A DNA stretch of 64,000 bases from an uncultured Planctomycetales bacterium. Lineage in GTDB: Bacteria > Omnitrophota > Gorgyraeia > Zapsychrales > Fredricksoniimonadaceae. The notes below the pieces were generated by a model, which saw only the letters and a program-made list of their open reading frames with translations, did not search any database and was not told the origin of the DNA. Below are positions 7,234-61,992 of this stretch, piece after piece (position 1 is the first letter of the stretch; every line of letters starts with the position of its first letter). A program made the position numbers and the translations under genes. Where the stretch lies: positions 48,667 through 112,666 of the forward strand of contig CAZOXU010000002.1 of NCBI GenBank assembly GCA_964583975.1, given 5' to 3'.

Positions 7234-7577
7234 GCGCGTTTAAAATCATCTTGTATGCGGACAATATCTTCTTCGGTAAGAATTGCTCCTGTAGCTACTT
7301 CAATAAACACTAATAATTCCTTACCAGTGTTTCCAATACGATGAACAGCCCCTAAGGGAATATCCACCACACTTCCTGGCCCCACTTGAATTTCTCGATC
7401 ATCAACCACAGCTAAGCCTTGACCATGAACAAAAACCCATTTTTCAGAACGGTGTTGGTGTTTTTGAAGGCTGAGTCGACAGTCTGGTTTTACCTCTACC
7501 CTTTTGACCCAAACACCGTTTTCTTGATAAAACTTTTCATACATGCCCCAAGGTCGAGTTGTTTTTTCTAATACCAT
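7230..7577 (-). CDS. Cupin-domain protein (mannose-6-phosphate isomerase type II C-terminal-like).
   Basis: 115 aa. RPWGMYEKF...LSLQKHQHRSEKWVFVHGQG...IPLGAVHRIGNTG...EDIVRIQDDFKR matches the PMI type II cupin module. Confidence 0.6.
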   Translation of the reverse strand: MVLEKTTRPWGMYEKFYQENGVWVKRVEVKPDCRLSLQKHQHRSEKWVFVHGQGLAVVDDREIQVGPGSVVDIPLGAVHRIGNTGKELLVFIEVATGAILTEEDIVRIQDDFKRA

Positions 7578-7586
7578 GAAAACTCC

Positions 7587-8903
7587 TTAGCCTTTATAAA
7601 GATTATCTTTGGTTTGAAAGAATTCAATTAACTTATTCTTTAAGAAATCTAAATCTTTCTGAGCGTGCTTACTGCTTATAAAAAACGCCTCTAAATCTGC
7701 AGGTGGTAAATAAATGCCGTTTTTCAGAAGATAATAAAATAATTTAGGGTAAACAAGTTTTGAGGAAGCTGCTTGAGCTGAAGAATAATCAAGAACCTCT
7801 TCTTTACGAAAACGCAAACTCATCATTCCCTTATAATTTGATACATGCGCTGAAATATTATATTCCTTAAAATAATTATTAATGTCTTTAGTAAAATTAC
7901 TAGAAATCTGATTAATATGCTTATAAACAGAAGCGTTCAAATTCTTTAAAGTAGCTAATCCAGCGGCCATTACAACTGGATTGCCAGAAAAAGTTCCAGC
8001 CTGATAAACATCCCCTAAGGGACTCAATCGTTTCATAATATCAGATCGACCACCATATGCTCCAATGGGAAAACCTCCTCCAATAATCTTACCTAAACAG
8101 GTTAAATCAGGCTGGATTCCCAAATCTCCTTGAGCCCCTGCATAATTGGAACGAAAACCTGTCATAACTTCGTCAAAAATTAAAACAATTCCATATTTAC
8201 GTGTTAACTCTCTTAAAGTCTTTAAAAATTCTTTCTTTGGGTTAATAACCCCCATATTACCTGCTACGGGCTCTAATACAATACAGGCTAGCTCTTTACG
8301 GTGTCGTTCAATGGTGTTGTATAGCTCTTGCGTATCATTGAAAGGCACGCTTAAGGTATTTTGGACGTGCGCTGGCGGAACTCCTTTACTGGTTGAAGAT
8401 GCCAGAAATGCGACCCCGCTTCCCGCAGCAGTCAACAGATCATCACAATGACCATGATAACAACCATCAAATTTTATGATCTTATTACGATTAGTGAAAC
8501 CACGGGCCAGACGAATAGCACTCATCACAGCCTCTGTCCCAGAATTGACAAAACGAATCAGGTCAATAGATGGAACTTTCTCTATAATTTCTTTAGCTAA
8601 ATCTGTTTCTAACTTTGTGGTTGTTCCAAAACTAGTTCCATTTTTAACGGTTTTATTGACTGCAGCTAAGACTTCCTTATGGGCATGACCTAAAATCAAA
8701 GATCCCCAGGAAAGGCAGTAATCTGTATAACGGTTACCATCAATATCAAAGAATTGAGCACCAGATCCGTGTGACATAACTAAGGCTTGTCCACCTACTC
8801 CTTTAAAAGCCCTTACAGGACTGTTGACTCCTCCCACTAAATACTTCTGAGCTCTTTTAAATTCATCTTTTGATCGACTGATTTTCATTGTTTTTAAAGC
8901 CAT
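7587..8903 (-). CDS. hemL: Glutamate-1-semialdehyde 2,1-aminomutase.
   Basis: Class-III aminotransferase fold. FKGVGGQALVMSHGSGAQFFDIDGNRYTDYCLSWGSLILGHAH is a typical HemL N-terminal region. 438 aa. Confidence 0.9.
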   Translation of the reverse strand: MALKTMKISRSKDEFKRAQKYLVGGVNSPVRAFKGVGGQALVMSHGSGAQFFDIDGNRYTDYCLSWGSLILGHAHKEVLAAVNKTVKNGTSFGTTTKLETDLAKEIIEKVPSIDLIRFVNSGTEAVMSAIRLARGFTNRNKIIKFDGCYHGHCDDLLTAAGSGVAFLASSTSKGVPPAHVQNTLSVPFNDTQELYNTIERHRKELACIVLEPVAGNMGVINPKKEFLKTLRELTRKYGIVLIFDEVMTGFRSNYAGAQGDLGIQPDLTCLGKIIGGGFPIGAYGGRSDIMKRLSPLGDVYQAGTFSGNPVVMAAGLATLKNLNASVYKHINQISSNFTKDINNYFKEYNISAHVSNYKGMMSLRFRKEEVLDYSSAQAASSKLVYPKLFYYLLKNGIYLPPADLEAFFISSKHAQKDLDFLKNKLIEFFQTKDNLYKG

Positions 8904-11871: not shown

Positions 11872-11892
11872 GAAGATATTATAGAAAAGGTT

Positions 11893-14025
11893 TTATCTTT
11901 TGACTAGGGCTTTAATGGCAGGTAGGTGTGTTAAAGCAGCTTCCTCGCCTCTGGCAATCAGCTTCTGTACTTCATAAAGCTCAAACCAATTAATTCCCTT
12001 TAAATCAGGGTGAATTAGTACGTCTGCTTGTTTGCTGCTGGCTTCTGCCAGAATATATTCGGATGCTTGTAAAGTGCAAACAATGATATCTGCAATATTA
12101 GGCGTAAAAGCCTTTCCAATAAAACGCCCCAAGCGAAATGTAACAAAGGCTAATGGATCAACTTTAAAAGAGATTTTCTCTTGTTGTTTCATATGCTCAT
12201 TATGTAAATCCTGACTCCAAGCTACTTCTTGAGGCGATTGAAGTACATTAACAGCAATGATTTTCCTAACTCCCATATCCACTAATACATTGGTTGGTAA
12301 AGGATTTAAAACTCCGCCATCAATAATTAAACGATTTTCTGTTGTGATAGGACGAAGGACCCCTGGAATAGCAATGCTTTGATGAACCGCTTCAACTAAT
12401 GATCCTGTATCAATAACAATTTCTTCTCTACGATGTAGATCATAGGCTACAGCTTTAAAAGGAATCTTGGAATCATGAAAGGTTCTATCTCCTAATTTAC
12501 CCCATAACCAACGATTAATAGCTTGTCCTCTAACCAAACCTGATATAGGAAGAGCTAAAGGAACAAGTAGAAACATACATAAAAAAGCTAAGACATATAA
12601 ATGAAATATAACCAATAATAACATAATCAATAAAACAGTAAGCGCACGTTCAAAAGGAGGATCAAATATAGACAGCATTCCTGATTTTTTCTCAAATTCG
12701 CGGGCAAATTTCTCTAATTCGTCAGCGTTATACCCAACTGACCATAAACTGCCAATTAAAGCTCCCATACTGCTTCCTACAATCACATCTACTGGAATCT
12801 TTTCTTGTTCCAAAATACGAATTATGCCAACGTGAGCTAAACCTAAGGCTGCCCCACCTCCTAAAACCAAGCCAATGAGAGAGCCGCTAATTTGCCTGCT
12901 TAATCTTTGCAAAACCAAAGCATACTCACTGTGGGGATCAACCTTCACAATAGAAAAACCATTGAACACAATCTGGGAATCATATTCTGTAGGCTTTAAA
13001 GAAGGTAATTTAAAAAACACATCATAATTCAATATTTTCTTAATCTCGTCAGGAGTTAGGTCGTCCCCCTTCACACCACCGATAAGAACTTGAACCTTAT
13101 CGGTTTGAAATCGATCCTTAAGCTGTTGTGATAAATCGTCAATCACACAGCGGGTTAACCCAAGATCATATTCTCTTTCTAGTGTCATCAAATGAACAAT
13201 ATCGCTTTGAACTAAAGCTTTTAAAACAATATTGTCCAATTGATTGGGAAGATCAAAAATAATATAGCTGTAATCATTGACCGGAGAACTAATCAATTGA
13301 CCGATCCGAGGAAGAATTCCTTGATCGGCAGCATCAAATTTAACAGCTAACACATCTAAATTAAGTTTCTCTTTTTGAATAGCGGCTGAAATTTTCTGGT
13401 GGTCATAAACAATATCAGTCATGTTAACCAATGGGGCATTCAGGTCAGAGCTTAAACTGATCAATAGAACTTTTTTATCCGTTTGATTTCTTAATGTTAA
13501 GGCTAAATTAGCCGCGTAAGTCGAGCTGCCTGTTCCCTTCACAGGAGCATAGACAGAAATAATTGTACATTCCTGGGTATTGCGTACCCCTGTGGAATGG
13601 CTTCTGATTCTTTGTGAAAGGCTTTGACTTAAAGCTACTGCTAATTTGGGAATAGTTTTTAATAAGGCTGCAAAAGCATCTTTATCAATTTTTACTACCA
13701 CGGAATCATTGATAGCTTCATAGGTATGCGTATGATTTTCACCTGTTAAGGTAGAGATAATTCCAAAGTGCATGCCTCGAAGGATAAAATCTACATCTTC
13801 TTTCTGACCTGCAGAATTAATGGCATAAGAATAAATTCGACCGGTAACCACCGCATAAAAAGCATCAGCAGGATCACCTTTTTTACAGATAATATCACCC
13901 TTATTAAAATCAACTACGTCTACCCGACGAGATATGCGGTTTAATTCAAACCAGTTAAGTCCAGAAAAAAGAGGAATCTGTTTAATAACAGCTAATTTAT
14001 TAAAAAATGAAGGCAAAGCGGTCAT
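11893..14025 (-). CDS. Cyclic-nucleotide-binding domain / degenerate ParA-MinD-like domain / patatin-like phospholipase protein (NTE-like).
   Basis: An N-terminal cNMP-binding (CAP-like) domain. A middle domain ISVYAPVKGTGSSTYAANLALTL...KVLLISLS that looks like a P-loop ATPase lacking the Walker Lys. Patatin motifs GLVLGGGAALG (GxGxxG), GSSMG (GxSxG) and DGGV (catalytic Asp). There are hydrophobic inserts. Confidence 0.75.
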   Translation of the reverse strand: MTALPSFFNKLAVIKQIPLFSGLNWFELNRISRRVDVVDFNKGDIICKKGDPADAFYAVVTGRIYSYAINSAGQKEDVDFILRGMHFGIISTLTGENHTHTYEAINDSVVVKIDKDAFAALLKTIPKLAVALSQSLSQRIRSHSTGVRNTQECTIISVYAPVKGTGSSTYAANLALTLRNQTDKKVLLISLSSDLNAPLVNMTDIVYDHQKISAAIQKEKLNLDVLAVKFDAADQGILPRIGQLISSPVNDYSYIIFDLPNQLDNIVLKALVQSDIVHLMTLEREYDLGLTRCVIDDLSQQLKDRFQTDKVQVLIGGVKGDDLTPDEIKKILNYDVFFKLPSLKPTEYDSQIVFNGFSIVKVDPHSEYALVLQRLSRQISGSLIGLVLGGGAALGLAHVGIIRILEQEKIPVDVIVGSSMGALIGSLWSVGYNADELEKFAREFEKKSGMLSIFDPPFERALTVLLIMLLLVIFHLYVLAFLCMFLLVPLALPISGLVRGQAINRWLWGKLGDRTFHDSKIPFKAVAYDLHRREEIVIDTGSLVEAVHQSIAIPGVLRPITTENRLIIDGGVLNPLPTNVLVDMGVRKIIAVNVLQSPQEVAWSQDLHNEHMKQQEKISFKVDPLAFVTFRLGRFIGKAFTPNIADIIVCTLQASEYILAEASSKQADVLIHPDLKGINWFELYEVQKLIARGEEAALTHLPAIKALVKR

Positions 14026-47306: not shown

Positions 47307-48640
47307 GATGCCCCTTTAAGTATTTCTTTAATCTCGCTTGTCACCACACCATCAGCTAATTGCGTGGTTAAAATCCCCTTACTTTTAATACTTTTAATGC
47401 TCTTAATAACCTTACCCTTAGAGTCTCTCGTAATACTAAAACCCTTTTTAAGCATGTTTTTGGGGTCTATGACTTGCACAAACTTTTGATACCCATCTAT
47501 TTTAGTCTTGGATGCCTGCAGACGCAATTGAATTGTTCGTTTTAAAGCATCTTTCCATTGTAAATTCTGTTTTCGGGCATTCTTAATCGTAAAAAGTGGT
47601 AATCGTCTAAAACTTTCTGTCATGCGCGAAATCAGGCTTTGTTGAATTTGGATGGCCCCCTGGGTGGAATGACGCAATATCAAAGCCTGACTTTTGATGT
47701 ATTCACGCTTTTCTTTTAATCGTTCTTCAACCAAATTAAATAAAGAATTTTGCTTTTCTTCGATTGATAACAAGAAGGTTTGAATCTGGTTTATCAGGAA
47801 GCCTGCCACGGCTGTAGGAGTTTTGGCAAAGGTATGTGCAGCTAAATCGGTCACGGTTGTATTAATCTCATGTCCTATCCCACTGATAATAGGGACTTTA
47901 GAAGAAGCGACAGCCTCAGCGATCATCTGGCTGTCAAAACAGCTTAAATCAGCGATCGAACCACCGCCACGGGTAATCACAATAACGTCTATACCAGGAA
48001 TTCGATTTAACAGTTTAATCGCATTTGAAACCGAATTTTCTGTTGTTTTGCCTTGCATTATGGAGTTCACAATGCTCACACTAAAAGCATAGCCGGTTTT
48101 TTTGATTTCATCCACAAAATCATAATAAGCTGCAGACTCATACGATGTAATAAGCCCTATCGATAAGGGCAAAAGAGGCATCGGCAATTGCTTATTTTTT
48201 TCCAAAACTCCCTTTTGTCTTAATAAAGCGATCAACCGCTGGCGATCCTGAGCTATTTTTCCCAGCGTATAAGTAGGATCAATGGCTTCGCAAATCAATC
48301 GAACCTGTCCAAAAGGAGGATAAAACTCCACCTTACACAAAAGCTTCACTTCAATATCATCTTTAAGAACAAAAGCATTTTCAGCTTTTTGAAGCAGCGC
48401 TTCTATTTTAGGTCGAACATTGGCCCATATCGTAACGCCAATCTTAGCTACGATTGAATTGGAATCTTGATCTTTCTCGCTCAAGGTAAAATAAAGATGT
48501 TTCTTATCTCTTAATTCTTGGACTTCCCCACAAATCCATAAAGCTTGAGGAAATCCACTAGTCAAAACATCACGAATAAAATTATTTAACTCTGATACGG
48601 TTAGGAAATCATCACTGTGGTGGGCACTATTGAGCATCAA
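47303..48640 (-). CDS. xseA: Exodeoxyribonuclease VII large subunit.
   Basis: 445 aa. An OB-fold N-terminus followed by the XseA catalytic region. Confidence 0.85.
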   Translation of the reverse strand: MMLNSAHHSDDFLTVSELNNFIRDVLTSGFPQALWICGEVQELRDKKHLYFTLSEKDQDSNSIVAKIGVTIWANVRPKIEALLQKAENAFVLKDDIEVKLLCKVEFYPPFGQVRLICEAIDPTYTLGKIAQDRQRLIALLRQKGVLEKNKQLPMPLLPLSIGLITSYESAAYYDFVDEIKKTGYAFSVSIVNSIMQGKTTENSVSNAIKLLNRIPGIDVIVITRGGGSIADLSCFDSQMIAEAVASSKVPIISGIGHEINTTVTDLAAHTFAKTPTAVAGFLINQIQTFLLSIEEKQNSLFNLVEERLKEKREYIKSQALILRHSTQGAIQIQQSLISRMTESFRRLPLFTIKNARKQNLQWKDALKRTIQLRLQASKTKIDGYQKFVQVIDPKNMLKKGFSITRDSKGKVIKSIKSIKSKGILTTQLADGVVTSEIKEILKGAS

Positions 48641-49062
48641 TTATCAATAAATCCAAGATTGAGAAGTTCTCGTTCCAACACTTGTCCTGCAGTAATAATA
48701 ACAGCTTCAAAACTTTTAATCTTTATCTGTAAAGAGTCCTTTAATGTGTGCAATTTCTTAGCATTCTCGGCATTTTTATTCTTCATATCCGAGCTATACC
48801 ACTGTTCATAACTTTTATAATCTTCGTAGGCTTTATTAAAATCTGTTAAAGCATCAGCATATTTCTTTATTTCTTGATGAGCTTTCAAGACATCTAAGTC
48901 TTTAACTTTTTGCCACTTTTCTAGCAAATAAGGGTTTGTAATAAACTGACGCTGATCCATTACATAGTAAATTTCAAGATTCTTTTCAATTTCATCTAGA
49001 AACTCTAACAATTGTTTTTTAAATAGACTTTTTTGATGCCACGATTTTAAAAGCTTAAGCAT
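48637..49062 (-). CDS. Hypothetical protein.
   Basis: 141 aa, K/E-rich helical. It is translationally coupled to xseA. Confidence 0.4.
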   Translation of the reverse strand: MLKLLKSWHQKSLFKKQLLEFLDEIEKNLEIYYVMDQRQFITNPYLLEKWQKVKDLDVLKAHQEIKKYADALTDFNKAYEDYKSYEQWYSSDMKNKNAENAKKLHTLKDSLQIKIKSFEAVIITAGQVLERELLNLGFIDN

Positions 49063-49066
49063 ATTC

Positions 49067-51088
49067 CTACCTTTGCATTAAATTCAAATATTGAAATAAG
49101 AATTTTAACTCATCCCAACGGATAATTGGCAATATCGTCGAATAATTATCACTCCAAGGTCTAATGGTCGGATACAACCCAACATCTATGGTTTTCCAAT
49201 TATATTGATTCAACAATTTCTGATACTTTTGCTTATCCCAAGTCATCACAGCCCAGACCGTACGCATGGTTAAACCTTCATCGGATGTCTGTTTGTAAGC
49301 TACCTGGGCCCCCATATCTTGGGCTATATGAGCCAAGATTGGCTTAAGATCAAAATAACGATTGGGAATATGAAAAAGAATGACGCCTTCTTTACTCAAA
49401 TGTTCTTTATAAATCGCTGCGACATCTCGATTAATCAAATGAGTTGGTATGGAATCCCCCCCAAAAGCATCTATGACCAAGACATCATAAAGAACATCTT
49501 TTTGTTTTTCCAGAGAAATACGCGCATCTCCTAAGAAAATATTGATCTGCCCTGGAGCTAAAGAAAGATAGCCAAAATAATTCTTAGCTAAAGTTACCAC
49601 ATCTGGGTCTAATTCAAAAAAATCTATAGGACAATCCGCACTAGAATACATAGCAATAGTTCCAGCGCCTAACCCAACCCCTCCAATACGGTTGATCTTT
49701 AAAATATCCTTGGTAAGCACATCACCTAAAGGAGATGTGGGGCTATAATAACCTAAAGGAATCCATCTTTTGGAAGGTTCTAAGAACTCAACCCCATGCA
49801 AGGTGGTTCCATGTAAAAAAACCCTAAAATCTCTCTTATCAAAAATATCATAAATACCATAGTAATTACGCTTCTTGATCACCGAAGCATACTTTTTAAT
49901 AGCATTTTCAATGGGTGAAGAGAAAACAATTGCTATAAGGGCAAATATGGTTACGACCTTTCGATTTGCACCTAGTGCTAGTAATAAAAGACCTACTAAA
50001 AACTCGACTAAATTAGTCGACACTAATGGAATAATCCAGCTTGTAAGAATACCTCCTAAAAAACCACCTAAAGAAATCATTACGTAAAAAAAGGTCAAAT
50101 TTTTATGATGTGGCTTGGTTCGGATTAATTCTCCTTGAATAAACATACAAAGCAAAAAGAGCAAAACATTAAATATAACAATAGAAATAATTACAGGCAT
50201 GGTAAACATCTTGCTCAAAAAATAATAAACAATGGATGTGCCTACAATAAGAAAAATGAAATGGTTGATCCATGCTGGAGCAAAAGGTTTATTTTTAAAA
50301 TTAAAAACAAAACTCAACAGATAAATACTTAAGGGAATAATCCAAAGTAATGGGGCTGGAGTAACTTCATAAGTAATAATATTGGTTACCGAAAGGAATA
50401 AAACAACACCTGCAGCAGATAAGCATAACCATCCTAAAGCCTTAGACCAGTCATATTGAATTTTCTCAGATTTGTCAGCCACCTGCTTACTCACAGGAAC
50501 AATTTTCAAAGCCACGATATTTAAGAATACAAGAACAACGTAGACTAATCGCCAGATGTTTAATTGAGAGGTGTTGGTTAAATATAATTCAAACAAAAAA
50601 GGATAGGTCAAAAGGCCTAAAAAGGATCCTAAATTAGAAACAGCATATAATGCATAAGGATTATCTTTAGATTTCGTGGTGTTTGCTACAGCCAACCAAC
50701 TTTGCGTCACTAAACTCACAGTGGCAAGCACAAAAAAAACAGGGCCAATTGAAAAAAGAAGCTTAACAAAAATATCCATAACTAACGGCAGGTTGGATTC
50801 GCCATGAGGGATTTGTAACATTCTTCCAGGGAAGAAAACAAACGGAATCAAAAGAAGAATTAAATGAATCTTTAAATATCCAGCAATTCCCTTCTTCGTA
50901 ATCAATTGGTGGGCAAAAATATACCCCGCTAATAGAATGCCTTGAAAAAAAACAACACAAGCTCCCCAAACTAAATAACTCCCCCCATAATTAGGAAGAA
51001 AAAGCTTGGCAATAATCAATTCAATTTGGAATAATAAAAATGCAGATAAAAAGGTTATACCTGCTAAAAGATAAAAACCCAAATCCAA
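49067..51088 (-). CDS. Fused polytopic membrane domain / spermidine-synthase-like (PABS) protein.
   Basis: About 400 aa of TM helices, followed by GVGLGAGTIAMYSS...DVLVIDAFGGDSIPTHL (spermidine-synthase fold). Confidence 0.7.
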   Translation of the reverse strand: MDLGFYLLAGITFLSAFLLFQIELIIAKLFLPNYGGSYLVWGACVVFFQGILLAGYIFAHQLITKKGIAGYLKIHLILLLIPFVFFPGRMLQIPHGESNLPLVMDIFVKLLFSIGPVFFVLATVSLVTQSWLAVANTTKSKDNPYALYAVSNLGSFLGLLTYPFLFELYLTNTSQLNIWRLVYVVLVFLNIVALKIVPVSKQVADKSEKIQYDWSKALGWLCLSAAGVVLFLSVTNIITYEVTPAPLLWIIPLSIYLLSFVFNFKNKPFAPAWINHFIFLIVGTSIVYYFLSKMFTMPVIISIVIFNVLLFLLCMFIQGELIRTKPHHKNLTFFYVMISLGGFLGGILTSWIIPLVSTNLVEFLVGLLLLALGANRKVVTIFALIAIVFSSPIENAIKKYASVIKKRNYYGIYDIFDKRDFRVFLHGTTLHGVEFLEPSKRWIPLGYYSPTSPLGDVLTKDILKINRIGGVGLGAGTIAMYSSADCPIDFFELDPDVVTLAKNYFGYLSLAPGQINIFLGDARISLEKQKDVLYDVLVIDAFGGDSIPTHLINRDVAAIYKEHLSKEGVILFHIPNRYFDLKPILAHIAQDMGAQVAYKQTSDEGLTMRTVWAVMTWDKQKYQKLLNQYNWKTIDVGLYPTIRPWSDNYSTILPIIRWDELKFLFQYLNLMQR

Positions 51089-51108: not shown

Positions 51109-51729
51109 TTATCCACCAAAAGTTCTTCGGGTTGAGGTTTTACGAATTTCTTTCTCGCTAGCCCAATCCAGTAATCCTGTGGTTAAATTCTTTAAATTAA
51201 GAGTAATTTTGAAATACACATCGGTAACCTTATCATTGCTTTGTTGAATCTCTGTAATGCTTCCAGTCAAAAGATATTCAGCTCCGAATTGTTTACCAAT
51301 TTGGATAGCCTTTAAAGAATCAACCAATCCACCTTCACGTTGGATCTTGATCTCTGCAAGAGCCGCCTCATCGGTACTTCGATCAATAAAACGAAACTTA
51401 CCTGATTGAATTAACTCGGTCCTAATAGAATCCGTAATGGCCTCGGTATCTACATGTTGCATCGATTTGTTTCTGACTTGATCAACAAGTATGACCGGAG
51501 GATGTTGATTGGTTAGTTGCACAACTGCAGGCGCAGATAAAAGTGACTGCACCATACTTTGAACAATTTGTTGAAGATCTGACGAACTAAAATCTGCTGA
51601 GATTAATTGTGGAGACTTCGCATCTTTATATTTAACCACAGGACCCGAAGCGCATCCTGTAATCATCACGACTAATAAACCGATAGAAAAATATTTAATC
51701 TGTTCATTCATAACTACCTCCCTATTCAT
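51109..51729 (-). CDS. LpoB-like lipoprotein (COG3417-like).
   Basis: Lipobox ITGCASG. VILVDQVRNKSMQHVDTEAITDSIRTELIQSGKFRFI resembles the LpoB core (LLVDSVNNRT...ETLRNALANNGKFTLV). Confidence 0.5.
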   Translation of the reverse strand: MNREVVMNEQIKYFSIGLLVVMITGCASGPVVKYKDAKSPQLISADFSSSDLQQIVQSMVQSLLSAPAVVQLTNQHPPVILVDQVRNKSMQHVDTEAITDSIRTELIQSGKFRFIDRSTDEAALAEIKIQREGGLVDSLKAIQIGKQFGAEYLLTGSITEIQQSNDKVTDVYFKITLNLKNLTTGLLDWASEKEIRKTSTRRTFGG

Positions 51730-53075
51730 GTTAGATTTAAGTAGTATATCCTATTCCCTGTTCGTACAAAACGAATTATTTTTTTACTATTCTCTTTAAC
51801 ATGAACTTTAATATATGCGTTTGCTCCCGTGTCTTTTTGCAAAAAAGCAAACTCATGTTCACCTGCTGAAACAGGTATTCGCATCACTTGAACATTAGCA
51901 GGCAAGGTTAACCAACTGCGCAAATCAGCATTTTCACTAAAAACATTATAAACTGAAATGGCTAAAGAACCCAAATCTCCCAATTCCCTTTCCACCTGTT
52001 TGGCAACAACCACCTTTGAAGCCACTCTAATTAATTCATGCGTCACCATGGCAGGTATTTTTTCCTTAAGAGCTTTAGCTGCGAGACCGGAGACATTACA
52101 GATAGGTTGAGTTTCAGTAATAATTTGCCCATTTTCGTAAACAAGCAATGGCGACGAATATAAAAATTCCATGTTATAAATAGGAAAGGCAACCGCAATA
52201 AAGTTAGGCGAATATAAAGATATCGGAAGAGGTATTTTGATTTCTTGTTTTTGCGGAACAAAACTATCTTCAAAGAAAACAATTAATTCACTAGTTTGAT
52301 CATTATTAAATGTCCGTGAAAGACGAGTCACATCTTTTTGAAGATAAGTGTTCTCAGGATAAATTTCTAAAGCTTTTTTATAATCAATATAGGCATCATC
52401 CCTCTGGCCAATCATTTCATAAATAATGCCTGATAAATAAAAGGTATAGGCATTTTGAAAAGAATTCTTTAAATTTCCAACAACCGCATCTAGTTTTGAG
52501 TATGCATTCACCACCGTACCAGGAATTTCGCTAGAAACCCCACGCTTTTGAGCTACAGCCTTAGCTTTTTCCAACTCACTAAGGTGTTCGCGCAAAGATT
52601 GTTCTTGTTGCATATTAGCTTTACGAATTTCAACAGCAGCCCCTTGCAAATCTTGTTGATAAAGATAATTCAAGGCCTGATAGTGATACAGCAATACTCG
52701 CTCATAACCAGGCATTCGATACGGCAAAGCATTGTCATTAACTAAAATTGAGCTAGCTTGAGCAGCTGCCCCAGAAGCACTAAAAACAGCTTTTTCATCT
52801 AAGTGCCGCATGGCTTCTTCGGCAGCTTGGAAGCTCTGCTTGCTTAGATAAATATCTCCTTGAATTTGAGCAATACGTCCACGTTCTAATAAATACAACA
52901 CCTTATCCCGAGACTTAAGCTTAGAGCCAAACTCTCTTTTAATATCGATAGAATTATTGTTTTGAATTTTCTCAATCAGAGGATTAATTTGAGATGTGTA
53001 GGAATGAAACGTGCTGGTCGATGCGCAACCAGAACAAAACAAAAATATAAGTACAATAAAAGAGTTTTTTATCAT
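51726..53075 (-). CDS. TPR-repeat lipoprotein.
   Basis: Lipobox LFCSGCAS. TPR-like repeats (AYIDYKKALEIYPEN...). 449 aa. Confidence 0.55.
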   Translation of the reverse strand: MIKNSFIVLIFLFCSGCASTSTFHSYTSQINPLIEKIQNNNSIDIKREFGSKLKSRDKVLYLLERGRIAQIQGDIYLSKQSFQAAEEAMRHLDEKAVFSASGAAAQASSILVNDNALPYRMPGYERVLLYHYQALNYLYQQDLQGAAVEIRKANMQQEQSLREHLSELEKAKAVAQKRGVSSEIPGTVVNAYSKLDAVVGNLKNSFQNAYTFYLSGIIYEMIGQRDDAYIDYKKALEIYPENTYLQKDVTRLSRTFNNDQTSELIVFFEDSFVPQKQEIKIPLPISLYSPNFIAVAFPIYNMEFLYSSPLLVYENGQIITETQPICNVSGLAAKALKEKIPAMVTHELIRVASKVVVAKQVERELGDLGSLAISVYNVFSENADLRSWLTLPANVQVMRIPVSAGEHEFAFLQKDTGANAYIKVHVKENSKKIIRFVRTGNRIYYLNLT

Positions 53076-53436: not shown

Positions 53437-55269
53437 TCAATCAGGGTATTTAAACATCGAGCGTCCAGATTTAGCGGCATCACTCCAATCATATTGCGTC
53501 TCTAATAAGAAAATTGTTTGAATTAAAGCCAGGTGTGAATACCCTTGTGGAAAGTTTCCTGTCAAGCGCCCTGAAGCGGTTTCTATATCCTCTGAAAAAA
53601 GGCCAAATCTGTTAGCATGGGACAGTATTTTATCAAGCATATGGTGAGCTTGTTGTTCATGTCCAGTTAAATAGAGAGCATTGATCATCCAAAACGTGCA
53701 TACAATAAATGCGTTTTCCGGAACACCAAATTCATCGGATGCTTTATACCGCATTGTAAAGCCACCTTTAGTTAAATCCTTATAAGTTTTAAAGACTGTT
53801 TTAATTATGCGTGGATCTTTTTTATCTAAAAATCCATAATGAAGCATCAAGAGATTCGAAGCATCTAAATCTTTACTTCCATAAAACATTACAAAGCTTT
53901 GCTTCTCTTCATCCCACCCATTCTTAAGGATATCCTCTTTGATCTCTTGGGCTACTTTAAAATACCCTGGTGCGTATTGGTCTTTACCGATAAATTGAGC
54001 AATCTTAGCAGCTCTGTCCATAGCGACCCAACTCATCATTTTAGAATGAACAAAATGTTTCATAGGGCCACGATGTTCCCATATACCGCAATCTGGTTCT
54101 TTCCATTTAGCTTCTACCATTTTTGCTAATGATCGCACCATTGTCCAGATTTCTTCATTAATCAATAGATCATTTCTAAAATCAACTACAAACGATGTAT
54201 AAATAGTTTCAATGAGTTGCCCGTACACATCATTTTGTTTCTGCTTATAAGCAGCGTTACCAATACGCACAGGTCGGGAATTTTCATAACCATTTAAATG
54301 ATCCAAAACCTTTTCTTCAAGCTTCTCTTCCCCATTGATACCGTACATAACAGAAATTTTATAATCCTTAAGAAGCATCCTGTTAAGAATAAAATTAATA
54401 TACCTTAGAGAGGTTCTGGCATGCCCCATACGAGCATACAAATCAATAATCATTGACGCATCTCTAATCCAACAGTAACGGTAATCCCAATTGCGGTCCT
54501 TCCCCATAATTTCAGGCAAAGATGTGGTTGGAGCAGCAATAACCGCACCAGTTCTTTGAAACATCAAAAGTTTAAGAGTAATAATAGAACGAATAACTAG
54601 TTCTTTATATTTTTCTGGAATCTCCGTCCGATAGATCCAATACAACCAATAACTTTTTGTTTTTTCATATTCCAAGAAAATCTTGTCTTTTGTGATCGAT
54701 TCAATTTTCTCATGATATGATAAAAGAAAATAAGACGATTCTTTCAACTCAATTTCTCGATGATGGACAATATCTTCCATATTCAGGTTAGTATAAAGAT
54801 AATAACTATTGTATTCCCCCTCAACAGTAGTGATTTTTAAATATTCGGAATGGATTGCTAGCTTAGCTTCACTTGCTCCGTAATTAGGCCTTGGATTTAA
54901 CTCAACGGTAATAATAGGTTTTCCGCAGACCAAATAAACACTTCGATGTATTTCCGCTGGACAATAGACTTGTGCATCGTTAGTATCGAATCGAGGCATA
55001 TAATCCCTGACTTCAAAAATCCCGTCTTTGGTTTTAAAAACTGTTTTTAAGATAGGCGTTCGATGCAAATAAGACTGTTCAACACTAACAATATCCTTAG
55101 CCCAGATTTTAAAATAACCTCCTTTTTGTTTATCTAGAATACGACCAAATACGGATGAAGAGTCAAAAAAAGGAAGACACAGCCAATCAATAGAACAGTC
55201 TTCATTGACCAGCGCTGCGCTAGTACAATTTCCAATAATGGCATAATTATAATTAGATGGAATTTTCAA
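53437..55269 (-). CDS. Glycoside hydrolase family 15 protein (glucoamylase-like; putative trehalase).
   Basis: 610 aa. A GH15 (alpha/alpha)6 catalytic domain. It is clustered with otsA and otsB. Confidence 0.75.
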   Translation of the reverse strand: MKIPSNYNYAIIGNCTSAALVNEDCSIDWLCLPFFDSSSVFGRILDKQKGGYFKIWAKDIVSVEQSYLHRTPILKTVFKTKDGIFEVRDYMPRFDTNDAQVYCPAEIHRSVYLVCGKPIITVELNPRPNYGASEAKLAIHSEYLKITTVEGEYNSYYLYTNLNMEDIVHHREIELKESSYFLLSYHEKIESITKDKIFLEYEKTKSYWLYWIYRTEIPEKYKELVIRSIITLKLLMFQRTGAVIAAPTTSLPEIMGKDRNWDYRYCWIRDASMIIDLYARMGHARTSLRYINFILNRMLLKDYKISVMYGINGEEKLEEKVLDHLNGYENSRPVRIGNAAYKQKQNDVYGQLIETIYTSFVVDFRNDLLINEEIWTMVRSLAKMVEAKWKEPDCGIWEHRGPMKHFVHSKMMSWVAMDRAAKIAQFIGKDQYAPGYFKVAQEIKEDILKNGWDEEKQSFVMFYGSKDLDASNLLMLHYGFLDKKDPRIIKTVFKTYKDLTKGGFTMRYKASDEFGVPENAFIVCTFWMINALYLTGHEQQAHHMLDKILSHANRFGLFSEDIETASGRLTGNFPQGYSHLALIQTIFLLETQYDWSDAAKSGRSMFKYPD

Positions 55270-55275
55270 AAGATT

Positions 55276-56061
55276 TCACCTCACACAATATTCTAGAAAC
55301 TCAACAACTTCATCAGTATTATTTAAATAATAGTGGGCATGAGAATGTTTGGTATGCCCTACATTTATAGTGATTCCTACGTTTTTCAAAGCTAAAAAAG
55401 CATCTTCATCTGTTGTGTCATCACCGATATAAATTGGAAGAACTGGTTGTTTTGCTTTAATATTCTGATATTTCTCTAAAATCCATGTTACAACCTTACC
55501 TTTATCCCAATCTAAAGGAGACCTTATTTCGAAAACTTTCTTGCCCAGTGTAATTCGAACTTCTTTTTTAGAAGAAAATTCTTTTGTAATCTTTTTAAGA
55601 AATGTCTTAAAAATAGATTCATCCTTTGGGTTAAGCAACCTGTAATGCACACTTAAACCAAATCCTTTATCTTCCACAAAGGCCCCTTTATAAAATACCA
55701 ACTCTTTAGTAATCTTCCATTTTAAATGCTCTAAGATTTCTCTAAATCGTGAAAAAGAGGAATTCTTAAAACCAATATCTATCCCTTCAATTTCAAGACC
55801 ATGATTGCCTATGTAAACAATCTTGTCAACCCCAACTAATTGTTTTACGTCGGACATAACCCTACCACTAATAATAAAAAGATGTATCCGCTTGTTGTCT
55901 GACAACCTATTAAGAATATGCCGCATTCTCAAAGAAAGAATAGCCAACTCTGGTCTCTCAACAATAGGTGTTAACGTACCGTCATAATCCAAAAAAAGCA
56001 TTATTTGACTACTTTTTAATCGTTTTTTTAAAATATCCAGTTCTTTAATAAGATATACCAT
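55276..56061 (-). CDS. otsB: Trehalose-6-phosphate phosphatase (HAD-IIB).
   Basis: MLFLDYDGTLTPIV (the DxDGT motif); 261 aa. Confidence 0.8.
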   Translation of the reverse strand: MVYLIKELDILKKRLKSSQIMLFLDYDGTLTPIVERPELAILSLRMRHILNRLSDNKRIHLFIISGRVMSDVKQLVGVDKIVYIGNHGLEIEGIDIGFKNSSFSRFREILEHLKWKITKELVFYKGAFVEDKGFGLSVHYRLLNPKDESIFKTFLKKITKEFSSKKEVRITLGKKVFEIRSPLDWDKGKVVTWILEKYQNIKAKQPVLPIYIGDDTTDEDAFLALKNVGITINVGHTKHSHAHYYLNNTDEVVEFLEYCVR

Positions 56062-56081: not shown

Positions 56082-57200
56082 CTACGAGACTCTCAATTTC
56101 TGTCCCAATGAAGAATGAGTATTAAGCATCTCGTTCTTTAGGTATAAAGTTTGTGTAGGATAAGCAAATTCAATTCTTTCTTTCTCAAACTCCCGCATGA
56201 TGGCTAAATTGATCGTCTGCTGTTTATCCATATAGACATTGTAATCTGAGCTTAATACATAATAGACGATCTCATAAACAAGGGCAGAATCCCCAAAACT
56301 CTGAAAATGGACCCGATCCATCTTCACCTCAGCCTTTTCTAATATATTCTGAATAATTTGAGGAATTCTTTCTACTAACTTTAATGGAGTCTGATATGTC
56401 ACCCCCACCTTAAAAGCAATTCGACGTGATTGCATACGCTTATAGTTCTTTACGCGACCTTTAGTCAAATCTGAATTTGATAAAATCAATTGTTCACCAG
56501 AAAGACTTAAAATTCGCGTTGTTTTCAATCCAATATGCTGAACCGTTCCCATGCAATCATCAATAATAATGAAATCCCCAATCTCAAATGGTTTATCCAA
56601 ATAGATCGACAAAGCGCTAAAAGCATCTCCCAACACAGCTTGGGACGCCATTGCAACAGCAACGCCCCCAATTCCAATACCGGCTATTAAAGAAGTAATA
56701 TTAACACCCAAATTATCTAGAATAAAAACCGCACCAAGAACCCATAATCCCCATTTAATTACCCATACCACACTTTTAACCAGAGCTTGAGATGATGGAT
56801 TGTCAGAACCAATGCGCTTAAGCAAGGTTTTATTCACACTATATTGGATAATTTCTTGAAACAATAAAATGGCACGAATTGTTACAACCAAGACTGCAGC
56901 ATATTTAATTAATGAACGTACTGCTTCTGGTAGGACAAGCGATGATACGGCTATATACAATGAAACAACAGTGATAACTGGCCACCCAATCTGGGAAAAC
57001 AAGCTTACAATGAAATCATCAAAATCAGAAATCGTCCTTGCCGCCAATTTCCCTAAATATTTAATAACAAATCTTTTAGCCATAGATAGACCCACAAGTA
57101 ATACAAGAAATGTCAGAAGGGAAACGACATAATCTTCAACCGTATTTTTAAATACAGTAATTTTTAGTACGACATTAAAATGATCCATAAACGTCATCAT
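56082..57200 (-). CDS. Mechanosensitive ion channel, MscS family.
   Basis: TM helices followed by the MscS beta-domain (GDFIIIDDCMGTVQHIGLKTTRI). The likely start is at 57200. Confidence 0.8.
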   Translation of the reverse strand: MMTFMDHFNVVLKITVFKNTVEDYVVSLLTFLVLLVGLSMAKRFVIKYLGKLAARTISDFDDFIVSLFSQIGWPVITVVSLYIAVSSLVLPEAVRSLIKYAAVLVVTIRAILLFQEIIQYSVNKTLLKRIGSDNPSSQALVKSVVWVIKWGLWVLGAVFILDNLGVNITSLIAGIGIGGVAVAMASQAVLGDAFSALSIYLDKPFEIGDFIIIDDCMGTVQHIGLKTTRILSLSGEQLILSNSDLTKGRVKNYKRMQSRRIAFKVGVTYQTPLKLVERIPQIIQNILEKAEVKMDRVHFQSFGDSALVYEIVYYVLSSDYNVYMDKQQTINLAIMREFEKERIEFAYPTQTLYLKNEMLNTHSSLGQKLRVS

Positions 57201-59458
57201 GCGGCCACCTCCTCCCCTTCCTTGCGAACTTGGGTCAATTGACCAACCAATTCTCCTGCCCAACGGTAAATATTGTTACTTTTTACCACCTCTCTCATTT
57301 GTTTCATACGTTGCGCTTGTTCTTCTTTAGGCATTTCCAACGCTGTATAAATTGCTTTTGAAGTTTGACCTATGTCATAGGGGTTAACGATTAACGAATC
57401 ATGCAATTCGCGTGCAGCCCCAGTAAATTGACTTAAAATTAACACTCCCTGCTCATCGTTACGGGCTGCAATAAATTCTTTAGCTACTAAATTCATCCCA
57501 TCATGCAATGATGTAACCATACAGACATCCGCCGCCTTATAAAATGGCAGTATATCCTGATGACTGTGATGCTTCATTAACAAAAGTATCGGCTGCCAAT
57601 TCTTCTTTTTAAATTTTGTATTAATTCGTTCAACTTCTTTGACTATTTCATCGATAAATTCTTTATATTTCGGAATCATGGTACGGCTAGGAGCACCTAA
57701 TTCAACGAATGTAAACTTCCCTCTAAAAAATGAATGAGTATCTAACAGGTTCTCTATAGCACGAAACCGTTCCAAAATACCTTTGGTATAATCCAATCGA
57801 TCTACCCCAACTCCAAGTAATTGAGCCTGAATACCATACTTCTTAAGAAGCATTTGCTTGTCTTCTAATGATTTAACTTCCGTTTCATCCGTAGAATCAA
57901 AACTTATACTAATAGGAAATGGTTTTATAAAAGTTGTGTGCCCTTCACGATTAATAGCAAAATGTTCATAATCAATACGTGATTCCAAGAATCGATCCAC
58001 GGATTCAATAAAATTATTACAATGAAACTGAGTATGGAATCCTAGAATATCAGCACCCAGCATTCCTTGCAGCAATTCCCTCCTCCATGGGCAAATGCCA
58101 AACGACTCCGGGTTAGGCCAAGGAATATGCCAAAATATGGCTATTTTCGCATCAGGCTTTAAAGCTTTAATCATGCTTGGTAACAAAGCAAAATGGTAAT
58201 CTTGGATTAAAATAAAAGGATTTGAAATCCCTTCTAATTCTTCTGCGACAGCCTGAGCAAATTTTTTGTTAACTGCTTTATAATCTTCCCAATCCTTAGC
58301 TCTAAAAATAGGTCTCGTATGTGCGATATGGCATAATGGCCATAGTCCTTCATTAGAAAATCCTGAATAAAATCCTTCCTCTAAATCTTTATCTATCCAA
58401 ACTCGGCGTAAGGTATATTTTGGCTCTTCCGGAGGAACCTTGATTCTGTCATTCTTATCAACTGTTTCACGATCAGCATTACCGCTGCCTTGGGCGATCC
58501 ATGTCCCCCCACAAGCATTGAGCACTGGTTCAAGAGCAGTGACTAAACCACTAGCAGGCACAATACATTCAATTTTGTTATCAGTCTTGATATGCATGTA
58601 AGGTTCTCTGTTGGAAACCACAAAAAGCGGACGATCTTCCAGCTTTAAACGAACAAATTCCTTCAACCTCTGAGGCGTCCAACGGGATTCTGAAGTATAC
58701 CGAAGACGGGCTTCTTCTTCAGCAGCTGCTCTGGCCATATCCAAGCTTTTAGCCATTTGAGTAATCTCTAGGGCCAAAGGTCCCAATAAAAGTTGTTGTT
58801 TAGCATTTAAAGGCCTGGAAGATTCACCTTTGCGAATTCTTCGTATCCACTCTGTAGTTCTTTTTATAGGAATCATGACATTGAAATAGATAACAATAAA
58901 TGTAGTCAATGAAATCAATAATGCCTGAATGAGGGCTCTCCAAAAGCTATTGATTAAAAGTCGTTGAACACGTTCACTAATAAAATCAACATCATAAAAT
59001 AATGTCAAAACATGAGTTGTTTTATCCCCCACTGTTAACGGAACCGCATAAGCATATAGCGATGCTTTCCCTAAATTAAAAAAACTCCCATAATCTGTCC
59101 CTAAACGCTCTACTTCCTGTATTCCTTCAAACAAAACTCTAGTATTAGACTCTAATTGAGGGCTAAAATCTTTTGAGGTAACTATCATATTCTCTCTAGT
59201 ATCATAAATATTGATACCAACAAGCCTTTCGCGATTAGAAAATCTATCCACTATTCGTTGTAAACTTTGAATATTCCCCTCAGCTGCTAACAACGGTTCA
59301 ACCGAAACCTTTAAACTATCTGCAATAAAACTAGCTCTTTTCTCTAGTTCATTCTTAAGACGATCTTGCTCTTGTTGAGCCTGCCAGTAAGAAAAAGCAA
59401 ACGCGACCATAGCAACAATGGATACCAACGATAGAATTAATCGTAAAGTTATTTTCAT
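57197..59458 (-). CDS. otsA: Trehalose-6-phosphate synthase (GT20) with an N-terminal TM-periplasmic-TM-HAMP-like sensor extension.
   Basis: The GT20 core starts at LFVVSNREPY. The N-terminal extension of about 300 aa has two TM helices flanking a roughly 150-aa extracytoplasmic region, then an amphipathic linker. The ATG is at 59456-59458, preceded by SD AGGAG. Confidence 0.8.
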   Translation of the reverse strand: MKITLRLILSLVSIVAMVAFAFSYWQAQQEQDRLKNELEKRASFIADSLKVSVEPLLAAEGNIQSLQRIVDRFSNRERLVGINIYDTRENMIVTSKDFSPQLESNTRVLFEGIQEVERLGTDYGSFFNLGKASLYAYAVPLTVGDKTTHVLTLFYDVDFISERVQRLLINSFWRALIQALLISLTTFIVIYFNVMIPIKRTTEWIRRIRKGESSRPLNAKQQLLLGPLALEITQMAKSLDMARAAAEEEARLRYTSESRWTPQRLKEFVRLKLEDRPLFVVSNREPYMHIKTDNKIECIVPASGLVTALEPVLNACGGTWIAQGSGNADRETVDKNDRIKVPPEEPKYTLRRVWIDKDLEEGFYSGFSNEGLWPLCHIAHTRPIFRAKDWEDYKAVNKKFAQAVAEELEGISNPFILIQDYHFALLPSMIKALKPDAKIAIFWHIPWPNPESFGICPWRRELLQGMLGADILGFHTQFHCNNFIESVDRFLESRIDYEHFAINREGHTTFIKPFPISISFDSTDETEVKSLEDKQMLLKKYGIQAQLLGVGVDRLDYTKGILERFRAIENLLDTHSFFRGKFTFVELGAPSRTMIPKYKEFIDEIVKEVERINTKFKKKNWQPILLLMKHHSHQDILPFYKAADVCMVTSLHDGMNLVAKEFIAARNDEQGVLILSQFTGAARELHDSLIVNPYDIGQTSKAIYTALEMPKEEQAQRMKQMREVVKSNNIYRWAGELVGQLTQVRKEGEEVAA

Positions 59459-59480
59459 TCTAAGAATCTCCTCTTTCTGT

Positions 59481-59565
59481 CTAAAAATAAAAAGACCACC
59501 ACTGGTTTTTAAACCAGATGGCGGCCCGACCATCAACTTATCCTCCAGGATAAAATCTAATCCTG
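59481..59565 (-). promoter_or_regulatory. Conserved leader element, copy A, in the otsA 5' leader. It has a P1 hairpin, a 22-nt box and a terminator-like hairpin with a U tract.
   Basis: Minus-sense CAGGAUUAGAUUUUAUCCUG ... UUGAUGGUCGGGCCGCCAUCUG GUUUAAAAACCAG UGGUGGUCUUUUUAUUUUU. The 22-nt box is identical to copy B at 61818-61839. Confidence 0.5.
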
Positions 59566-59598
59566 AACCCTTTTAATCCTGTTCTAGATAAATCATAA

Positions 59599-60213
59599 TT
59601 ATCGCGTCATAATTCCTTTTTTGAATACGCTAAACATATCCATAAGCCAACTCTTCTTTAAAGTAAAATTATAACCACTCAAACTCCAGTGAGTAATGGT
59701 AGATTGAATCATCCCCCAAAAGATAAAACCTGTCGCATCCACAGCAAGATCCTTACGAAAAATGCCTAACCTTACACCTTGGGTTAAAATAGACTCAATG
59801 GTATTTAAATATTTCTCAACAACCCCAAACATTTCTCTACGAAGAGTTTTATCATGCAAATTTAAAGACTCATTAATTAGGATAAACGATACCCCCTTGC
59901 GTTGTTCCGCATAGGATAGATGCGCAAAGAAAATATTTTCTAGTTTCTGTAGAGGATCAGATTCTTGATTAGCAGCATTCTTAATGGCACCCAAGAGGGT
60001 CTCTTCAATATCTTCAATTAGAAGACTGAGAATTTTCTTCTTACTCTTAAAATGTCTATACAATGCGCCATCGGTGATGTCAAGATCTGCCGCAATTCCT
60101 CGAACAGTTAAATTCTTAATTCCATCGGCAATAATAATCCGCCTTGCGGCATTAACAATTTCCTGTTGACGAACAGTCCTTTTGTGATGCTGAATTTCTA
60201 TTGTCGATTCCAT
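59599..60213 (-). CDS. TetR-family transcriptional regulator.
   Basis: N-terminal HTH (ARRIIIADGIKNLTVRGIAADLDITDGALYRHFKSKKKIL); 204 aa. Confidence 0.8.
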   Translation of the reverse strand: MESTIEIQHHKRTVRQQEIVNAARRIIIADGIKNLTVRGIAADLDITDGALYRHFKSKKKILSLLIEDIEETLLGAIKNAANQESDPLQKLENIFFAHLSYAEQRKGVSFILINESLNLHDKTLRREMFGVVEKYLNTIESILTQGVRLGIFRKDLAVDATGFIFWGMIQSTITHWSLSGYNFTLKKSWLMDMFSVFKKGIMTR

Positions 60214-61785: not shown

Positions 61786-61864
61786 CCCAAAAAAAGCCGT
61801 CACCTGATTTTTTCAATCAGATGGCGGCCCGACCATCAAAAAAACCTCTGGAGAGAAACTCCAG
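61786..61864 (-). promoter_or_regulatory. Conserved leader element, copy B, in the nhaD 5' leader.
   Basis: Minus-sense CUGGAGUUUCUCUCCAG ... UUGAUGGUCGGGCCGCCAUCUG AUUGAAAAAAUCAGGUG ACGGCUUUUUUU. The box is identical to copy A. The terminator hairpin covaries. Confidence 0.5.
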
Positions 61865-61992
61865 ACCCAAATCATATTAACAAATAAGGATTAATATGCA
61901 ATAACACTTTGGATTCTAATAATTTAATTTCACCTACTTCAATGGAGATTAATTATAAACGGAAGAATAAGTTGAAAATTGACACAAAGACA

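Follow-up and report, generated by a model that had tools for sequence, protein, structure and literature searches.

A stretch of 64,000 nucleotides from an uncultured Planctomycetales bacterium, placed by GTDB in the Omnitrophota (contig CAZOXU010000002.1, positions 48,667 to 112,666; hereafter the window), carries on its minus strand a gene, 57197..59458, in which a trehalose-6-phosphate synthase (OtsA) of glycosyltransferase family GT20 is joined to an N-terminal module with the order of a membrane receptor. This module consists of a transmembrane helix (TM1), a predicted single-Cache/PDC-like sensor domain outside the membrane, a second transmembrane helix (TM2), a HAMP-like module and a helical linker that leads into the enzyme. 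The fusion is a real, widespread and undescribed receptor-enzyme architecture, whose parts are of known kinds and whose combination is new. No description of a TM/Cache/HAMP-OtsA fusion was found in a full-text literature search, and a HAMP module feeding a metabolic enzyme of the GT-B fold is new to the searchable literature. We judge it reasonably probable that the protein works as a dimeric receptor-enzyme, in which input through Cache, TM helices and HAMP modulates the synthesis of trehalose-6-phosphate.

Architecture of the sensor-OtsA protein

The coding sequence is complete, with 753 codons and a stop, and it opens at ATG 59458. A Shine-Dalgarno sequence (GAGGAG, 59468..59473, recognised from the sequence) precedes this ATG with a 9-nt spacer. 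All genes and both riboswitches described here lie on the minus strand. The longest open reading frame (ORF) given by a mechanical call is 57197..59536, which opens at TTG 59536, and a database protein 100% identical to ours (P0185, 778 aa) is annotated from that upstream TTG. This start was rejected, because the TTG sits inside the aptamer of an nhaA-I riboswitch (59516-59570) and before a terminator hairpin (59480-59527), and ATG 59458 is therefore the real start. The first-pass annotation of the window had described a receptor-style fusion over 58570-59458. This span covers the 5' third of the minus-strand ORF; its end coordinate is the ATG start codon with the Shine-Dalgarno sequence, and its start corresponds to aa 296, slightly within the GT20 core.

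Hydropathy was plotted by the Kyte-Doolittle method with windows of 19 residues. Two hydrophobic peaks and no others appear, at aa 1-27 (maximum 2.35) and at aa 171-199 (maximum 2.17), and these are the two membrane helices that had been quoted at first pass. TM1 was placed at aa 5-25 (59384..59446) and TM2 at aa 174-198 (58865..58939). Both peaks are present in 67 of the 67 full-length family members aligned. Since the Pfam GT20 match starts at aa 279, about 277 residues precede the enzyme, and 148 of them (aa 26-173, 58940..59383) lie between TM1 and TM2; the extension of about 300 aa and the extracytoplasmic domain of about 150 aa claimed previously were both recovered. A cleavable signal peptide at A19-F-A21 was considered but seems unlikely, as the A-x-A is not conserved in homologues and the predicted helix at aa 2-58 is unbroken. 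TM1, which is continuous with the long first helix of the sensor, is treated here as a probable uncleaved signal anchor. With regard to orientation, the net charge of the TM flanks is higher on the presumed cytoplasmic side (+4.5 versus +1.6 outside; higher in 62 of 67 sequences). The stronger argument for a cytoplasmic N terminus is that the enzyme requires UDP-glucose and glucose-6-phosphate, which are cytoplasmic.

The structure of aa 1-297 was predicted with AlphaFold2 (AF2). The model has a confidence score (pLDDT) of 75, with values of about 80-90 in the sensor domain, and shows a helix at 2-58, a five-strand alpha/beta domain, a helix from 158 to about 210 that contains TM2 and the first HAMP helix, a loop, a helix at about 226-254 and a short helix from 262 to about 273. 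A long N-terminal helix and an antiparallel beta-sheet with flanking helices, placed between two TM helices, are the features of a Cache/PDC fold. When the model was compared with the PDB by Foldseek, the top match was the integrative model of full WalK, a TM-Cache-TM-HAMP protein (273 columns, E 2.8e-10), followed by the WalK structures 4ywz, 5is1 and 7dud (E about 1e-7), KinD, DcuS, Tlp3 and other Cache/PDC sensors. The Foldseek probability was 1.0 to WalK (TM-score 0.69-0.78 on the target), KinD and DcuS. Searches at the sequence level pointed to the same receptor. With phmmer, the sole match of the window protein in the PDB was the extracellular domain of Staphylococcus aureus WalK (5is1); a profile of 11 homologues improved this match to E 1.9e-4 and added 4ywz and 7dud. 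In the NCBIfam model HK_WalK, the part that aligned with aa 2-251 likewise consists of TM1, sensor, TM2 and HAMP (E 2.5e-8; 33 bits against a cutoff of 725 bits). The external domain also has a conserved polar motif, R-I-V-x-R/K-F-x-N-R-E-R-L, at aa 68-79. For the periplasmic part, for which the first-pass annotation had suggested structure prediction and a fold search, the outcome is thus a Cache/PDC fold with WalK, KinD and DcuS as the best structural matches. The receptor-like topology it had proposed is supported by AF2, Foldseek and the family profile; two TM peaks and a folded domain do not agree with a soluble or disordered extension. The protein is itself neither a histidine kinase nor a chemoreceptor: Pfam finds no kinase or MCP domains, no HisKA/DHp or HATPase_c, and only GT20 after the HAMP-like region.

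For the region behind TM2, the sequences of 15 diverse members of the family, from TM2 to the linker, were made into a profile. HAMP chains account for 23 of the 25 top PDB matches of this profile (Af1503, Tsr, PcaY, NarQ, EnvZ chimeras and Aer), with alignments that span the entire HAMP, and the best is the HAMP of Af1503 (E 0.006, profile positions 21-71 aligned to 5-56). Pfam HAMP (PF00672) matches 5 of 15 diverse members at E<1, the best at 1.7e-6. In the window protein the HAMP-like module occupies about aa 195-246 (58721..58870 for aa 197-246) and has the layout of a HAMP, about 50 residues of helix, connector and helix right after TM2 (AF2 helix to about 210, loop, helix at about 227-254). 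The first helix, AS1, is PIKRTTEWIRRIRKG, and the second, AS2, is PLALEITQMAKSLDMARAAA. The hallmark HAMP residues, P197 at the start of AS1, G211 in the connector and E231 at the start of AS2, are invariant or nearly so. The amphipathic HAMP-like linker noticed at first pass is supported at the level of the family profile. The sequence matches of the window protein taken by itself are weak but consistent, and with the family profiles and the model the N-terminal part is probably a single-Cache/PDC-like sensor with a HAMP-like relay, homologous to those families at the family level.

The putative signalling linker, aa 247-277 (58628..58720), comprises EEEARLR, a short hinge and a W-T-x-x-R-L helix that leads into strand beta-1 of GT20. 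In the family, AS2 is followed by a near-invariant A-E-E-E-A-R-L-R, 6-7 less conserved residues, the W-T-x-x-R-L helix, a short turn and beta-1, L-F-V-V-S-N-R, and diverse members show no change at W260, T261 and L265. Spacings were measured in the phmmer set, which is not biased by motif. All 46 sequences have a distance of 23 from the W to the N of SNR, 38 of 43 have a distance of 29 from the Glu of AS2 to the W, and length variation is limited to the HAMP connector. A fixed length is as expected of a mechanical signalling helix, and not of a flexible tether. In the AF2 model the linker helix 262-273 has a pLDDT above 80. The Arg of SNR corresponds to R9 of E. coli OtsA, which we take to be a ligand of the phosphate of glucose-6-phosphate; the relay would therefore end about 20 residues from the acceptor site.

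The catalytic domain, aa 278-753 (57200..58627), matches Pfam Glyco_transf_20 (PF00982) at aa 279-742 over profile positions 4-472 of 473 (E 4e-120; 402 bits against a cutoff of 32.5), which agrees with the earlier placement of the GT20 core from LFVVSNREPY. E. coli OtsA (b1896, 474 aa) is 31% identical to the GT20 part by BLASTP, and the alignment pairs its residue 4 with L278. Equivalents of E. coli R9, G22, Y76, W85, D130, H154, R262, K267, R300, D361 and E369, the catalytic and substrate residues reported by Gibson et al., are all present. The conserved GT20 motifs SNR, SGL, Y..FSN..LWP, QDYH, WHIPWP, DRLDYTKG, APSR and HDGMNLVAKE were found. The full-length AF2 model (pLDDT 81) gave Foldseek TM-scores of 0.83-0.90 on the target to solved structures of trehalose-6-phosphate synthases (TPS). 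By its residues the active site is intact, and the enzyme is predicted to be active. The NCBIfam OtsA equivalog TIGR02400 matches at 433.4 bits, below its cutoff of 564.85, and the model for glucosylglycerol-phosphate synthase scores lower than the OtsA model (304 versus 433.4 bits). Judged by sequence, the domain belongs to a divergent OtsA subfamily. Trehalose-6-phosphate is the likely product, because OtsB and a trehalase-like GH15 share the operon.

Distribution and conservation of the fusion

To see how far the N-terminal module extends beyond the window, aa 1-277 were searched by phmmer against 1.84 billion cluster representatives (clusters at 50% identity). The module was found in 794 clusters at E<=1e-3, in 364 at E<=1e-10 and in 38 at E<=1e-30. 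Among the best 166 relatives, GT20 follows directly in 52, while 90 are too-short fragments and 24 have frameshift-like tails, some with remnants of VVSNREP; no kinase, cyclase or other output domain was seen on the module in any of these 166. A partial match of 390 aa (P0310) has no Pfam domain.

Genomes were then scanned, one per GTDB species, with a single motif pattern, AR[AL][ASH]AEEEA, which inflates the apparent conservation of that motif in the locus set. At least 128 loci were confirmed, and 80 were fetched. They come mostly from Acidobacteriota, and also from Omnitrophota, Methylomirabilota, Nitrospirota, Elusimicrobiota, Bacteroidota, Verrucomicrobiota, Gemmatimonadota, Thermodesulfobacteriota, Chloroflexota and Dormibacterota. 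In 78 of the 78 loci whose contig continues (at least 78 species, about 11 phyla), the module runs without a break into GT20 in the same reading frame, and 66 loci have intact fusion ORFs of 733-796 aa. All carriers in the scan are metagenome-assembled or single-amplified genomes; a word search for sources gave 17 matches, all of them metagenomes, and no cultured carrier. With the full-length protein as query, at least 120 proteins were retrieved, each about 750 aa long and 56-85% identical, mostly from Omnitrophota. The named ones are labelled plainly as 'trehalose-6-phosphate synthase', a database label that misses the sensor. The fusion is the standard OtsA of the clade of the window, is widespread elsewhere and is not peculiar to this genome.

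Sequence divergence was compared with the four closest loci. Synonymous differences (pS) are saturated, at 0.76-1.0, and nonsynonymous differences (pN) are 0.18-0.32 in the sensor, 0.12-0.30 in the HAMP and linker and 0.09-0.19 in GT20. Because pN is far under the saturated pS throughout, the whole fusion is under purifying selection.

Three variants of the fusion were noted. In one protein of 913 aa (P0019) the external sensor domain is duplicated. In another (P0015) TM1 and TM2 are joined by a short loop and the sensor domain is missing; this sequence comes from a single contig of 940 bp and may be an assembly artefact. A third, of 894 aa (P0301), has a C-terminal low-molecular-weight phosphatase (LMWPc) domain after GT20. 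Such variants are as expected of the modular sensor evolution typical of receptors.

Riboswitch leader and operon context

The leader of the sensor-otsA gene contains an nhaA-I riboswitch aptamer (Li+-I / Na+-II type) at 59516..59570. It matches Rfam RF03057 at 51.6 bits, against a gathering cutoff of 37, over model positions 1-55, and so the leader-RNA control mentioned in the first-pass annotation is confirmed. An intrinsic-terminator platform lies at 59480..59527. Its 5' arm overlaps the 3' arm of the aptamer helix P2, and it continues into UUUUUAUUUUU; the terminator hairpin reads GGCCGCCAUCUGGUUU/AAAA/ACCAGUGGUGGUC and is followed by a U-run. The leader, 59459-59575, folds with a minimum free energy of -36.1 kcal/mol (z -3.3). 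A second nhaA-I riboswitch is located at 61819-61868 (61801-61868 with its platform) and precedes a gene of the CitMHS family ('citrate transporter', NhaD-like; 60503-61774/61816). The true start of this gene is probably the ATG near 61774, because the TTG at 61816 abuts the aptamer at 61819. Both riboswitch matches are full-length with both helices (51.6 and 53.1 bits against 37). The two riboswitches stand within 2.4 kb of each other, and each has an intrinsic terminator whose 5' arm overlaps P2.

The RNAs of this class have been validated as Li+ riboswitches, with terminator-type variants that sense Na+ ('Na+-II'), and an osmotic role has been suggested for them (White et al. 2022, PMC9646797). 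In that study otsA lies downstream of 16 of the 944 nhaA-I representatives, a 'citrate transporter' gene downstream of 5 and mscS downstream of 3, and nhaD is among the rare associated genes (PMC9646797).

A gene for a TetR-family regulator (59599..60213; Pfam TetR_N and TetR_C) lies directly upstream of sensor-otsA, as it does in the related locus L003. Downstream follows a gene for an MscS-family mechanosensitive channel (56082..57200; Pfam MS_channel_1st, 2nd and 3rd), which is syntenic in L001, L003 and L010. The otsA stop overlaps the mscS ATG (57198-57200) as ATGA (57197-57200), with GGAGGAGG just upstream, which implies that the two genes are translationally coupled; the mechanical mscS call, from TTG 57263, is 21 codons too long. 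The trehalose-6-phosphate phosphatase gene otsB (55276..56061; Pfam Trehalose_PPase, E 3.5e-49) comes 20 nt after mscS, and an OtsB homologue is found in 56 of the 80 related loci, usually directly downstream. Last in the cluster, 6 nt after otsB, is a gene for a GH15 trehalase-like hydrolase (53437..55269; TREH_N and Glyco_hydro_15), syntenic in L001, L002 and L003.

In other genomes nhaA-I was found directly before the orthologous gene in Omnitrophota (L003 and L010) and in an Elusimicrobiota chromosome (L041), and in L001 before an antiporter-otsA operon; it was not found in the Acidobacteriota and the other loci. In L001, which is the closest genome, a riboswitch-preceded gene for a 360-aa cation/H+ antiporter-like membrane protein (6813-8000) abuts sensor-otsA, and two tandem OtsB paralogues (11329-12993), 50% and 36% identical to the OtsB of the window, follow MscS. 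Elsewhere in the window, two consecutive ORFs of 141 aa and 673 aa (48637-51088) have no Pfam match; they sit downstream of genes for an LpoB-like lipoprotein (51109-51729) and a TPR protein (51726-53075).

Proposed signalling, alternatives and known systems

We infer sensor control of catalysis from the receptor anatomy, the invariant length of the linker and the co-transcription of genes for synthesis and degradation. The pairing of the module with GT20 alone, the modular way in which the sensor evolves and the known cases of post-translational control of GT20 enzymes are further points in favour. In the proposed mechanism the N terminus would be cytoplasmic, the single-Cache/PDC-like domain would be displayed outside and the chain would return via TM2; HAMP and the rigid, fixed-length helical linker would then run straight into beta-strand 1 of the intact GT20. 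The protein would presumably dimerise, most likely as a parallel homodimer by analogy with all other TM-Cache-TM-HAMP proteins. A stimulus outside or in the membrane, possibly osmotic, ionic or related to desiccation, would alter the packing of HAMP, and the linker would pass this change on. With its end about 20 residues before the SNR Arg, the linker could switch the geometry of the acceptor site, the closure of the GT-B domains or the oligomeric state, and trehalose-6-phosphate synthesis would rise or fall within seconds. The context of riboswitch and MscS agrees with a signal that is osmotic, ionic or given by the state of the membrane. Control at the protein level would be layered under the transcriptional nhaA-I Li+/Na+ riboswitch with its terminator, of which the RNA layer is already known and the protein layer is not, and the translationally coupled MscS would serve as an emergency valve. 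Such control would explain how OtsA/OtsB and GH15 can be encoded in one operon without a futile cycle; co-transcribed synthesis and degradation would be left unexplained unless the activities are post-translationally controlled.

Several points weigh against this proposal. To our knowledge, GT-B glycosyltransferases are not established outputs of HAMP, and we know of no precedented mechanism. The nhaA-I riboswitch alone could suffice for salt control. The context of MscS, GH15 and riboswitch is confined to the closest loci (Omnitrophota-like and one Elusimicrobiota) and is absent from many Acidobacteriota loci, so the osmotic reading may not generalise. As to the module itself, the window protein stays below the Pfam gathering scores of the Cache clan (sCache_4 16.2 bits, cutoff 22.1; ArlS_N 16.9, cutoff 27; SMP_2 16.2, cutoff 28.9), and the sensor domain matches CHASE8 and Cache_WalK at sub-threshold level as well. 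Pfam HAMP does not match the window protein even at E<=10, and the E-values of the HAMP profile against the PDB are marginal (0.006-0.4). The K+R count of the TM flanks is uninformative on topology (5.8 versus 6.0). Finally, the stretch between HAMP and linker helix, 251-257, has a pLDDT below 50 in the AF2 monomer model.

The last of these points would also suit a passive anchor or scaffold, in which the N-terminal module merely keeps OtsA at the inner membrane face without signalling, so that trehalose-6-phosphate is made near MscS or transporters, the membrane is protected locally or the enzyme dimer is held together. The enzyme domain is complete and could function alone, and the variant P0015 does without an external domain. 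However, a tether requires neither a conserved, folded external domain of 148 aa nor a HAMP. The linker length is invariant across phyla, W-T-x-x-R-L and the P, G and E residues of HAMP are invariant too, purifying selection acts on the entire module, and the identical module order is otherwise known from signalling receptors. We regard the anchor as unlikely, since it accounts poorly for the folded sensor, the HAMP residues and the fixed linker.

Another possibility is that the protein is a true receptor-enzyme that responds not to osmolarity or the state of the membrane but to a specific small molecule, bound by Cache outside the cell; a nutrient or osmoprotectant in the surroundings, for example, could make de novo trehalose synthesis needless. 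Cache/PDC domains typically bind small molecules, the structural neighbours include the ligand-binding domains of KinD, DcuS, Tlp3 and PctD, and polar motifs are conserved in the external domain, for example at aa 68-79. On the other hand, no small-molecule ligand is established for the external domain of WalK, which is the closest relative, and the N-R-x-E part of the conserved motif is common to WalK and may be structural. Moreover, the variant without the external domain retains TM-HAMP-GT20, and the gene context indicates ionic or osmotic stress. A specific ligand of this kind seems rather improbable, though still a serious candidate. The weakest alternative, in which the true protein starts at an internal Met near GT20 and the upstream 277 codons are untranslated or a separate gene, as the soluble canonical OtsA of about 470 aa and the many short database relatives might suggest, is effectively refuted: there is no Met from M241 to the essential R284 and the next, M288, falls past SNR, a strong Shine-Dalgarno sequence precedes ATG 59458, module and enzyme are in frame in every evaluable locus across about 11 phyla (78 of 78, with 66 intact ORFs of 733-796 aa), amino acids are conserved although synonymous change is saturated, the fragments are accounted for by short contigs and frameshifts, and the internal start allowed for at first pass thus fails.

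If the receptor-enzyme reading is extended to the whole family, it would describe a widespread class of one-component proteins in which Cache and HAMP directly gate a GT-B enzyme. In such a class HAMP would for the first time be seen to signal into a bulk metabolic enzyme, and compatible-solute synthesis would be controlled within seconds and independently of transcription; we give this wider claim slightly less than an even chance. In the textbook view, trehalose synthesis is a response to osmotic stress and desiccation whose main control lies in the transcription of a gene for a soluble OtsA. If the receptor-enzyme reading is true, cells can wire an environmental sensor directly onto a compatible-solute enzyme, and the outputs of HAMP include, besides signalling domains, a metabolic enzyme of the GT-B fold. 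Formation of trehalose-6-phosphate would be a simple, assayable output for questions on signal transmission by HAMP and on the input of bacterial osmosensors. The family is abundant in uncultured phyla of soil and groundwater (Acidobacteriota, Omnitrophota, Methylomirabilota and others) and may matter for surviving drying and salinity; a class common in soil Acidobacteriota could underlie tolerance to desiccation and salt.

Among known systems, the sensor kinases WalK/YycG are closest for aa 1 to about 250, in module order and in fold, and the WalK external domain is the best match in both sequence and structure. In contrast to WalK, the window protein lacks HisKA, HATPase and cytoplasmic PAS domains, and its output is GT20; it is not a WalK orthologue, as the HK_WalK score is far under the cutoff of that model. 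With E. coli OtsA and the soluble TPS enzymes of GT20 (1GZ5/1UQU, 5JIJ, 5HUT) it shares the GT-B fold, all catalytic and substrate residues and an adjacent OtsB partner, and it differs from E. coli OtsA in the 277 extra N-terminal residues that form the membrane receptor. The main controls of E. coli OtsA are transcription (RpoS) and stimulation with K+, of which the latter is a precedent for post-translational control of a GT20 enzyme.

Enzymes coupled to HAMP are known, such as the mycobacterial adenylyl cyclase Rv3645, TM-HAMP-GGDEF diguanylate cyclases and HAMP-PP2C phosphatases. As in these, TM helices and HAMP are fused directly to a catalytic domain to give a receptor-enzyme in one polypeptide. 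The known enzymes act on signalling molecules, which they produce or remove, and function only as dimers, with active sites at the dimer interface, whereas the output in the window is a metabolic GT-B enzyme that makes the precursor of a bulk compatible solute. Precedents for post-translational control of GT20, by an N-terminal extension or by ionic conditions, are plant class I TPS1, which has an auto-inhibitory N-terminal extension, and the cyanobacterial GT20 relative GgpS, which is activated by salt; their regulators, however, are soluble, unrelated in sequence and without TM, Cache or HAMP. With regard to the nhaA-I RNAs, the receptor architecture of the OtsA under their control is not mentioned by White et al. 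2022 (PMC9646797). The leader in the window is a full-length member of that class, and otsA is one of the associated genes tabulated there. Terminator-type variants were reported in that study only from Deltaproteobacteria, and the terminator platform of the window stands in an Omnitrophota-like genome.

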